A stretch of DNA of 4,041 nucleotides, from the IMG/VR virus record IMGVR_UViG_2663762839_000013, positions 1 through 4,041 of that record. One strand, given 5' to 3'. The position numbers and the translations under genes were made by a program. This DNA is from a virus (Duplodnaviria; Heunggongvirae; Uroviricota; Caudoviricetes). Of this stretch, positions 913 through 2,838 are shown in pieces; the first letter of the stretch is position 1, and each line of letters starts with the position of its first letter. Below the pieces are notes generated by a model. It made no database searches, had not been told where the DNA came from, and worked only from the letters and a program-made list of their open reading frames with translations.

Positions 913-2838
913 TCATGCCGCGGCATCCGCGTTGTTCACTTCCACCTTCACACTGTCAATCAGCAGCGTATATGTCGCCGCCTTTGATATGCCTGTCAGT
1001 TGCAGTTTGTCCGCCGCCCCTGATGCCGGAGATTTCACCAGTGTGAACGGCGTCCCCCGTTTCTCATCCAGTACCGGCGTCACCTGAATGCTGTTGTTTC
1101 CGGCAAACTCAAAAGCCAGTGTGTGCCATCCGTTATCAAAGACCCCGAACGTATCCAGCTTCGCATTCGGCTTCTTGTGGTACATCGCGTTCAGGTTCGT
1201 CGCATCCGTCTGCAGGAAGAAGGACATCAGCATGTCGTTGCCTTCCTCTGCCAGCGTCACTCCCTCCGGCAGGGACGACAACTGCCAGTAAATGCCCAGG
1301 GCAAACCGATTCGGCACCAGTGAACCCGGCAACTTAAACCGTACGCTCACACGTCCCCCCTTCTTCAGTAACTCCACTCCCTGTCCGGCTGCATCATGCT
1401 CCAGAAACCAGATGTGGTTTTCCGGTTTATTCAGTTGCAGGGCCTTACCTCCCGTAGCCCCCGCATCACTGACCACCGCTTCAGCAATGTTTTTGTTAAC
1501 ATTGTCTCCGCTCGCCGGTTTGTGATAATAGCGCCAGCCCTGTGATGCCAGGTCTTCGCCGGACGCCAGCAGACTCATCAGGGTTCGGTTACTGACCGGG
1601 GCTTCCGGCTCTCTCTCCGTACCTTCACCGGAAGGTCCGGTGGGCTTCACCGTATCAGGCTGTTTTCCGGTAATGAATTCAGCGGTTCTCCCGGCATGCA
1701 CAAGAATCGCCGTTGCCAGACGGTCGGAAATAATCCCACGACGTGCCCATGATCCAAAATGCGTTTTACGGTCGGCCGTCGTCCAGGTTTTGGCGTCCGT
1801 TCGACCACCGGCTCCGTAATACCCAATATCCGCAACATCCGGATCTTCTGACGGCTCGTTGGTACCCACATTTCGCCCGTTTTCATCCGTCATAAACGGC
1901 ACAAAGAAGATTTTTTTTGCGGATTTCGTCTTGTATGCACCATACACCGCATCGTATTGCGAAGAATAAGTCTGCTTCCAGTAGTAGGTCGTGTCGCCAC
2001 AAATCCAGGGAACCGATGACGGAGAGCCCCCGAGACACTGACCTCCGAATTCCGACAGGTCAGAACGATATTTTTCCACCATGGAATCAAACAGCCCCGG
2101 CTGAGTGGCGTATGCACCCTGTTTCAAATCAAACTCGCCCTGCATCCAGACCACTGCAAGCAGAATATTTTTAGGGTTAGCCTTCAGTGCGGCCTGAGTA
2201 CGGGTAAGCAGGTCCTTGTACAGTGGCTTATCTACACCCCAGCGTGCCGAGGTCTCGCTTGCGCCGGTGGATTCGCTGAAGGTACCTTCATCGCCCGCCA
2301 AAAATGCAGAACCACCACGACAGCATGGTACCAGCAGGATCCCCGCGTTATTCGGGATATACGGAAGCAGTTTTTTGGCAATATGTAAGCCCTGGCCGAC
2401 ACAGCCGTACTGCCCTTTGCTCAGGTCTGCCTTCGGATGATTCAGCGTACTCATATCCTGCACATCATGCAGACAGTGGTCAGCCGGGATGATGTCGTTA
2501 TACGTACAACTCTCTCCACCCGGAGTTACCGTGCTGCGGCGCGCCAGCTGTTTAATGCGCGGATCCGGAGCATCGTAAGAATCCGGTAACGGAAGCCCTT
2601 CACCGTAGGCCATGCCGTTGGACTGTCCGGCAAGCACAACCACGTAGAACCAGTCCGGCTCAGATGAAGGGCCGACCTGTGGATCTCCTTCAATAGCCAC
2701 CGCCTGCATCAGTGTGTACGGCGTAATGGCAACCGGTCCGCCATATGGCTGCCAGCCCTCTTTCAGTTTGTGTGTCAGCTTTTCCGCAAGGTCTGACGGC
2801 GACGCCGCCCTGACAACATCATAGTGTTTAAATGCCAT
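913..2838 (-). CDS. nanS: Prophage-encoded sialate O-acetylesterase of the NanS-p family (N-terminal DUF1737, SASA/SGNH-hydrolase domain, C-terminal carbohydrate-binding region), 641 aa
   Basis: Intact 641-aa ORF starting MAFKHYDVVRAASPSDLAEKLTHKLKEGWQ (DUF1737-like N-terminus). SGNH block I motif VVVLAGQSNGMAYGEG with a catalytic Ser in GQSN; additional SGNH-like blocks (WMQGEFD). RBS GGAGG sits 4 nt upstream of the ATG. Position relative to a tRNA-Arg and a lysozyme gene matches the stx-flanking late region of lambdoid prophages. Confidence 0.9.
   Translation of the reverse strand: MAFKHYDVVRAASPSDLAEKLTHKLKEGWQPYGGPVAITPYTLMQAVAIEGDPQVGPSSEPDWFYVVVLAGQSNGMAYGEGLPLPDSYDAPDPRIKQLARRSTVTPGGESCTYNDIIPADHCLHDVQDMSTLNHPKADLSKGQYGCVGQGLHIAKKLLPYIPNNAGILLVPCCRGGSAFLAGDEGTFSESTGASETSARWGVDKPLYKDLLTRTQAALKANPKNILLAVVWMQGEFDLKQGAYATQPGLFDSMVEKYRSDLSEFGGQCLGGSPSSVPWICGDTTYYWKQTYSSQYDAVYGAYKTKSAKKIFFVPFMTDENGRNVGTNEPSEDPDVADIGYYGAGGRTDAKTWTTADRKTHFGSWARRGIISDRLATAILVHAGRTAEFITGKQPDTVKPTGPSGEGTEREPEAPVSNRTLMSLLASGEDLASQGWRYYHKPASGDNVNKNIAEAVVSDAGATGGKALQLNKPENHIWFLEHDAAGQGVELLKKGGRVSVRFKLPGSLVPNRFALGIYWQLSSLPEGVTLAEEGNDMLMSFFLQTDATNLNAMYHKKPNAKLDTFGVFDNGWHTLAFEFAGNNSIQVTPVLDEKRGTPFTLVKSPASGAADKLQLTGISKAATYTLLIDSVKVEVNNADAAA

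Follow-up and report, generated by a model that had tools for sequence, protein, structure and literature searches.

Does an intact metabolic gene beside broken lysis genes mean that a bacterial host has been selected to keep it? This question is raised by a stretch of 4,041 nucleotides (nt) of viral DNA (Caudoviricetes; IMG/VR virus record IMGVR_UViG_2663762839_000013, positions 1 to 4,041), the whole of which we call the window. It carries nanS-p, a gene for a sialate O-acetylesterase of the NanS-p type, at the place where Shiga toxin (Stx) phages carry their toxin genes, and an earlier note on this DNA had proposed that host selection retained the esterase while the neighbouring lysis function decayed. 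Taken together, our results make it highly likely that nanS-p is here a standard, very probably active allele from the late operon of a lambdoid prophage, that the damage around it is private to this contig and consists most likely of chimeric joins, and that it is not evidence of selective retention.

The longest open reading frame (ORF) of the window encodes 641 amino acids (aa) on the minus strand and has exactly the coordinates reported earlier. The gene and the domains of its product are as follows:

913-2838, minus strand: nanS-p ORF, 641 aa, uninterrupted (ATG at 2838-2836, stop at 915-913; ORF list)
2692-2832, minus strand: DUF1737 domain, aa 3-49 (Pfam PF08410, E=8e-16)
1702-2661, minus strand: NanS-like SGNH/SASA esterase domain, aa 60-379 (phmmer against PDB 3PT5, NanS (YjhS), E=5.1e-120)
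931-1485, minus strand: C-terminal lectin-like jelly-roll domain, aa 452-636 (PDB 6YP6 'NanS-p', E=9.6e-61)

Together with a SASA match at aa 66-262 (Pfam PF03629, E=6e-10), these results bear out the description of the product as a full-length NanS-p-type esterase with DUF1737 and SASA domains. They add a domain that the earlier note did not mention, DUF6645 at aa 491-604 (Pfam PF20350, E=1e-43). The protein thus has the three-domain architecture of NanS-p (DUF1737, NanS-like SASA/SGNH, lectin-like C-terminal), and phrog_143 matches it from end to end (1080 bits). The location typical of NanS-p, in the lambdoid late region after Q, the tRNAs and, where present, stx and before the holin and endolysin genes, was found by synteny with a prophage of E. 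coli O104:H4 (L001), with contigs that encode the identical protein (L002-L009) and with the Stx2a phage 933W; the flanks left in the window itself are a tRNA remnant and part of the endolysin gene only.

All blocks of the NanS type are kept in the catalytic domain: GQSN at aa 71-74 with Ser73 (codon 2620-2622), RGGSAF at aa 174-179, MQGEFD at aa 232-237 and RKTH at aa 357-360 with His360 (codon 1759-1761). The corresponding blocks of 3PT5 are GQSNA, RGGSAF, MQGEFD and R-x-S-H-F-S (PMC10792757), and the NanS-type variants of the SGNH blocks, with a nucleophilic Ser and a basic His, are also defined in PMC10462455. Block IV reads RKTH in the window protein, whereas Stx2a phage alleles have RSSH, RASH or RPTH. 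The earlier note would have given up the assignment on loss of a catalytic Ser, His or Asp, or on best homology to another SGNH family. Ser73 and His360 are conserved with NanS, and the closest structures by sequence are NanS and NanS-p; naming Asp was slightly mis-specified, as the NanS family has no catalytic Asp and uses a Ser-His pair with a main-chain carbonyl in that role (PMC10792757).

Esterase activity has been reported for all seven EDL933 and five O104:H4 NanS-p alleles assayed, including alleles of non-stx prophages (PMC8065619, PMC10462455); all five alleles assayed in O104:H4 strain C227-11 were active (PMC8065619). Non-stx prophage alleles contribute to growth on Neu5,9Ac2 (PMC8065619; PMC10462455), and phage induction raises nanS-p expression (PMC10462455). 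In every respect in which NanS-p can be recognised from sequence, the ORF agrees with the family, and we regard it as a standard nanS-p allele that very probably encodes an active esterase. By homology to the assayed alleles, Ser73 would attack Neu5,9Ac2 or mucin-bound O-acetyl sialic acids at the 9-O-acetyl ester, with His360 as the predicted base. Hydrolysis of 9-O-acetyl (and 7/8-O-acetyl) esters on free or mucin-bound sialic acids would then yield Neu5Ac that is usable by the nan pathway. The C-terminal jelly-roll domain would target carbohydrate, a role proposed by Franke et al. 2020 according to the summary in PMC8065619, and three of the four aromatic residues of its proposed sugar site stay aromatic in the window protein (F512, Y517 and F541). 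Transcription would normally start from pR' under Q antitermination and pass through three terminators in the leader.

A different view of the gene is that NanS-p is primarily a structural protein of the phage, with DUF1737 on the hexons and the esterase and lectin domains serving the virion in mucus adherence or receptor access. The locus would then reflect phage function and not lysogenic conversion. Cryo-electron microscopy and proteomics of phi24B showed that its NanS-p protein, gp84, processes itself and decorates the capsid in abundance, with DUF1737 located in the central hexons (bioRxiv 10.64898/2026.04.10.717836). DUF1737 is also present in the window protein, which it may dock on a capsid, and the gene sits in the late operon, co-induced with the late genes. 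However, the T=9 podovirus phi24B belongs to the Sepvirinae, whereas the terminase of the window's parent prophage is of the lambda type (Nu1/GpA). The DUF1737 of the window protein is only 66% identical to that of the 933W allele, and the loop that bears the Tyr42 'tooth' in phi24B is 3 residues shorter; Tyr42 of 933W aligns to a gap, with Tyr41 nearby. The first linker contains PSSEP, but no clear SSP-type motif, as proposed for the second site of processing, was seen in the second linker. Moreover, a structural role does not preclude a host role, and for other alleles experiments have shown that growth of the lysogen depends on the esterase. A primarily structural role is therefore possible but, in our judgement, on the unlikely side. 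Considering that the phi24B orthologue decorates the capsid as a virion protein, the 'metabolic moron' of the earlier note is nevertheless no longer the sole reading of the family, which may serve the virion as well as the lysogen.

Whether a standard nanS-p was selectively retained in this lineage depends on how the window relates to other copies. The exact 641-aa protein has already been deposited from E. coli (EEZ8070652.1, EFC4078699.1, CAM6931393.1 and others; 68 contigs). Among the 24 longest blocks of identical-protein contigs, which were the ones examined (56 further blocks with a longest contig of 2-5 kb were left out), the protein occurs in intact prophages only. Compared with prophages that have intact holin, DUF1327, endolysin and Rz genes, the ORF shows 0 differences in 1926 nt, and its flanks are 99.8-100% identical. 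Against one such prophage (CP170296.1, here L003), the window has 5 substitutions and one 1-nt insertion or deletion (indel), all of them outside the ORF in the remaining 1.25 kb. With practically no divergence from prophages that retain the complete lysis cassette, the intactness of the ORF is uninformative about selection in this lineage. Its identity to copies in intact prophages further implies that the lesion beside it is either extremely recent or not biological. The proposed host selection for the esterase during decay of the lysis genes was thus not borne out, given that the ORF is 100% identical at the DNA level to copies lying beside intact cassettes.

The lesions lie on both sides of the gene:

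1-216, minus strand: nt 138-353 of the 534-nt lysozyme (endolysin) gene of the phage, an internal fragment (comparison with intact prophages)
211-216, unstranded: junction of a 750-bp deletion with 6-bp microhomology, ATACCC (blastn against L003; alignment to the O104:H4 prophage)
3326-3388, minus strand: tRNA-Arg(UCU) remnant, the 3' 63 of 77 nt (mapping to the intact gene at L003 5436-5512; the window match ends at L003 5450)
3389-4041, unstranded: non-phage patchwork of four E. coli chromosomal gene fragments (megablast against E. coli genomes, blastn against reference loci L011-L014)
3389-3526, unstranded: fatty acyl-AMP ligase fragment, 138 bp (megablast/blastn)
3524-3658, unstranded: ptrA fragment, 135 bp (megablast/blastn)
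3653-3917, unstranded: crr fragment, 265 bp (megablast/blastn)
3914-4041, unstranded: ppk1 fragment, 128 bp (megablast/blastn)

On the left, blastn aligned window positions 1-216 to L003 9594-9379 (100%) and positions 211-3388 to L003 8628-5450 (99.8%). Between the two, the class II holin gene is lost apart from 2 nt at its start, together with DUF1327/YdfR and the beginning of the lysozyme gene (nt 1-137). The decayed lysis function noticed earlier therefore corresponds to a lesion that is real in the sequence, but its interpretation as decay may be an artefact. The deletion junction had 0 matches in JGI metagenome contigs and GTDB species representatives. It was also absent from 5426 complete E. 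coli genomes, in which the junction query was covered only by matches in two pieces that extend over 512 bp and retain the holin.

On the right, the tRNA-Arg that had been named as the flank of the locus is there as a remnant but not as a complete gene. Its 5' 14 nt are missing, with unrelated DNA in their place, and ARAGORN finds no tRNA gene in the window. The Rfam match to a partial tRNA (3337-3389, minus strand, model positions 9-63 only) reaches 27.5 bits, below the gathering score of 29. Thus, the argO-type tRNA-Arg of the window is not an intact gene.

Beyond the remnant, each fragment of the patchwork has 98.4-100% identity to its best match found in E. coli. The four fragments are unlinked in the genomes searched, and their joins overlap by 0, 3, 6 and ~4 bp. 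No complete E. coli genome covers the window beyond 3388, and the junction between the tRNA and the acyl-AMP ligase fragment (3388/3389) had 0 matches in IMG/VR contigs, JGI metagenome contigs and GTDB species representatives. Exact-protein look-ups for the ORFs that span joins (3692-3994 and 3404-3601) returned nothing. Ligation at restriction sites, of the Hi-C type, was considered as a source of the joins and rejected; inspected by eye, they have no common site and show microhomology instead. Five microhomology joins within 4 kb, four of which link pieces of 128-265 bp, fit a chimera or misassembly much better than the decay of a prophage. The contig is probably chimeric from library preparation or assembly, and the apparent 'decay' may accordingly be an artefact; otherwise, the alternative is a very recent rearrangement.

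In the form that agrees with the earlier proposal, the window would be a prophage remnant genuinely in decay: the lysis genes and the upstream Q and tRNA genes would have been lost from the host, while purifying selection kept nanS-p for access to carbon from O-acetylated sialic acids. The nanS-p ORF is indeed intact, although holin, DUF1327 and the start of the endolysin gene are missing and the tRNA is truncated. Loss of holin and endolysin is a classic route to a locked-in prophage, the nanS-p family evolves under purifying selection (dN/dS, the ratio of non-synonymous to synonymous change, ~0.18), and NanS-p alleles confer a growth advantage on Neu5,9Ac2 (PMC10462455; PMC8065619). However, the comparison with intact prophages gave no substitution within the 1926 nt of the gene and few changes, 5 substitutions and 1 indel, in the other 1.25 kb. 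The upstream 'loss' is a chain of four 128-265-bp pieces from unlinked loci, unlike prophage decay, and neither junction is present in any other genome searched. Expression would also be doubtful with Q and pR' gone and three terminators upstream of the gene. Together, these observations leave a decaying remnant improbable.

Several observations count against our preferred interpretation of a standard allele amid chimeric joins. Through a deletion, the window protein lacks the fourth aromatic residue of the proposed sugar site (the equivalent of F611 in phi24B), and compared with the O104:H4 allele it has 14 aa fewer in the linker between DUF1737 and the catalytic domain. At the level of single bases, the tail fragments look like natural sequence; the translation of the crr fragment appears identical to what we take to be the E. 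coli Crr sequence, which would make its 2 mismatches silent. A deletion at 6 bp of microhomology is also a product of replication slippage in vivo. A real event in the cell would then combine loss of the holin-to-endolysin segment at that microhomology with replacement of the upstream region by four template-switched chromosomal pieces, resembling chromoanasynthesis and immobilising the fragment with nanS-p intact. We consider such an event very improbable, although, were the rearrangements real, they would represent an unusual multi-fragment microhomology event in a bacterial genome. The suggestion that the gene encodes an inactive or diverged SGNH hydrolase without sialate esterase activity, for which the identity of just ~60-65% to Stx-phage alleles and the absent classic SGNH Asp might speak, is extremely improbable, since lack of the Asp is a family trait common to active NanS (PMC10792757; PMC10462455), all four NanS blocks are conserved, NanS and NanS-p themselves are the solved structures closest in sequence, and the C-terminal 470 aa are identical to the O104:H4 allele while all five C227-11 alleles assayed were active.

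The standard allele proposed here also carries traces of its own history. Its product falls in a 90% identity cluster with 3518 members and is 95% identical to the allele of the O104:H4 non-Stx prophage and 64% identical to L0105 of 933W; Stx-phage alleles are generally 55-65% identical to it. Pairwise dN/dS of the family is 0.18-0.19; by region, it goes down to 0.06-0.10 in the N-terminal portion of the catalytic domain and up to 0.74 in the second linker. When nanS-p (913-2838) was aligned to the O104:H4 copy (L001 5669-7630), the 3' ~1400 nt were 100% identical, and the C-terminal 470 aa of the two proteins agree in full, whereas the 5' ~600 nt have a synonymous divergence (dS) of 0.65-1.5. 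This combination of 3' identity and 5' divergence points to a recombination breakpoint inside nanS-p, a mosaic structure typical of lambdoid phages. In NCBI records, several short and incomplete proteins of the 90% cluster bear the name 'phage terminase large subunit family protein, partial', which looks like annotation carry-over and not biology.

The position of the gene relative to stx could be read from the leader between the tRNA-Arg remnant and nanS-p, in which the following features were found:

2839-3325, minus strand: leader/spacer of 487 bp from the tRNA-Arg remnant to nanS-p; its homologue in 933W is the stxB-to-nanS-p spacer together with the argO terminator
3284-3287, unstranded: empty site for the 1335-bp stx2AB cassette of 933W (gap between two blastn segments)
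3060-3250, minus strand: STnc100-family small RNA (sRNA) gene, full-length (Rfam RF02076, 139.2 bits against a gathering score of 47, E=8e-32, model 1-206)
3071-3090, minus strand: STnc100 intrinsic terminator (terminator scan)
3294-3311, minus strand: terminator-like hairpin just 3' of tRNA-Arg (terminator scan), equivalent to the 933W 'terminator upstream of the stx genes', L010 1886-1909
2948-2963, minus strand: third terminator-like hairpin in the nanS-p leader (terminator scan, RNA fold)
2841-2860, minus strand: ribosome-binding-site hairpin UCUCCCGG/CCGGGAGG, which includes GGAGG 5 nt before the ATG

Two segments of the window matched the 933W late region (L010) by blastn. Positions 2741-3283 correspond to L010 3245-3787 (73.6%), the stretch from just past stxB to the start of nanS-p, and positions 3288-3388 correspond to L010 1810-1909 (93%), which holds argO and the annotated terminator upstream of stx. 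The 933W annotation places stxA2 and stxB2 at L010 1963-3203, and the cassette would fall between window positions 3283 and 3288, which supports the earlier claim that nanS-p lies at the stx site. Neither stx genes nor an stx remnant were found in the window by comparison with 933W in the alignment of the leader region (A3, read without its L001 row). Thus, the locus is not an Stx-converting late region. The estimate of about 490 bp, rich in hairpins and free of stx, between tRNA and nanS-p also agrees with our data (487 bp), but the view that this interval holds only non-coding hairpins does not, as it contains the STnc100 sRNA gene.

The STnc100 element is also present in L003, and in 933W it lies 75 nt downstream of stxB (207.7 bits), a location near stxB that has been published (PMC12370729). 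In a preprint, STnc100 is described as related to PasD, sRNAs found on the flanks of 'sialic acid esterase' genes (bioRxiv 10.64898/2026.05.13.724894). For AsxR, the antisense sRNA that adjoins STnc100 in 933W, Rfam gave no match in the window, even with a cut-off of E<=1. A plus-strand terminator hairpin (3032-3062, GCCCGCG...CGCGGGC followed by T6) adjoins the STnc100 terminator back to back; its position and orientation are AsxR-like, yet its sequence does not match the AsxR model. Across 560-3400, we found 8 terminator-like sites where 2.8 were expected, and three of these lie on the coding strand within the spacer. Folding of the minus strand at 2820-2970 gave a minimum free energy of -43.3 kcal/mol (z=-3.5). 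The UCUCCCGG-CCGGGAGG hairpin and the start region of nanS-p are identical in sequence in 933W, which suggests possible translational control of nanS-p.

Downstream of nanS-p, two small ORFs separate the gene from the deletion junction:

595-777, minus strand: DUF1378 small ORF, 60 aa (phrog_494, E=1e-38; PF07125 in L003)
288-557, minus strand: DUF826 ORF, 89 aa (phrog_311, E=2e-37; PF05696 in L002-L006)

On the opposite strand (795-912, plus), a GC hairpin with a T-run (891-912) lies directly against the stop codon of nanS-p, about 90 nt beyond a TTGACA box at 795-800. This region could encode a small RNA in antisense direction, where the Pas preprint (bioRxiv 10.64898/2026.05.13.724894) places PasA/PasC. 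The z-score of its fold is only -2.2, and Rfam gave no match to a PasA/PasC sRNA downstream of the esterase gene in 560-912.

The contigs that encode the identical protein (L002-L009) identify the parent element as a lambda-like prophage that lacks stx. The late region of this prophage runs from a 126-aa Q through a 65-aa ORF, a 349-aa N6/N4 methylase, tRNA-Met/Ile(CAT), tRNA-Arg(TCG), tRNA-Arg(TCT) and STnc100 to nanS-p, and continues with DUF1378, DUF826, the class II holin, DUF1327, the lysozyme (endolysin), Rz and the lambda-type Nu1/GpA terminase. In L003 the Q and DNA methylase genes occupy 3220-5213 upstream of the tRNAs, outside the window; the pair resembles that of O111-type Stx2a phages, in which a 126-aa Q occurs with a 352-aa methylase (PMC10462455).

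As a discovery the locus matters little, being an ordinary copy of a prophage gene at the toxin site of Shiga-toxin phages. Its biology is already known: non-stx alleles, their activity, the position downstream of the stx site and STnc100 have all been published, and the exact protein has been deposited repeatedly. Its use lies in a caution, namely that the intactness of a gene next to a damaged neighbour does not point to selection if the locus shares 99.8-100% identity with intact copies. Likewise, with its right-hand 650 bp, the contig should not be trusted for structural inferences.

Among known systems, the closest are the non-Stx lambdoid prophages with the identical protein, of which L003 is an example. 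They have the same ORF DNA and the same STnc100 spacer, with DUF1378 and DUF826 downstream. In contrast to the window, which lacks 750 bp of the lysis cassette and everything upstream of nt 15 of tRNA-Arg, prophages of the L003 type keep three tRNAs, Q, the methylase and the full holin-DUF1327-endolysin-Rz cassette. The O104:H4 non-Stx prophage (L001) shares the gene order tRNA-Arg, spacer, nanS-p, DUF1378, DUF826 and holin. Its allele WP_000874454.1 (653 aa) has 95% aa identity to the window protein and differs in the diverged 5' ~600 nt and in a first linker that is 14 aa longer.

The NanS-p proteins of Stx2a phages, L0105/Z1466 of 933W and gp84 (vb_24B_21) of phi24B, have the same three domains and the same SGNH-variant blocks as the window protein. 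Overall aa identity to L0105 of 933W is 64% (66% in DUF1737, 72.5% in the catalytic domain and 59% in the C-terminal domain), and its gene is placed like that of the window, downstream of argO and STnc100 and upstream of S. The two loci differ in that 933W has stx2AB (1335 bp) and AsxR, whereas the window has no stx and no match to AsxR. In addition, 933W and phi24B are podoviruses, whereas the parent prophage of the window has the lambda-type terminase. More distant is the chromosomal NanS (YjhS, 3PT5), which is encoded in the nanCMS operon and exported. It is homologous to the catalytic domain of the window protein over 320 residues, with the Ser-His pair and the blocks conserved. NanS is a single-domain protein (337 residues in the PDB chain, with a native length that we take to be ~326 aa). 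The window protein is not this enzyme: with 641 aa, it adds the DUF1737 and lectin-like domains to the shared catalytic core and is encoded in the late operon of a prophage.

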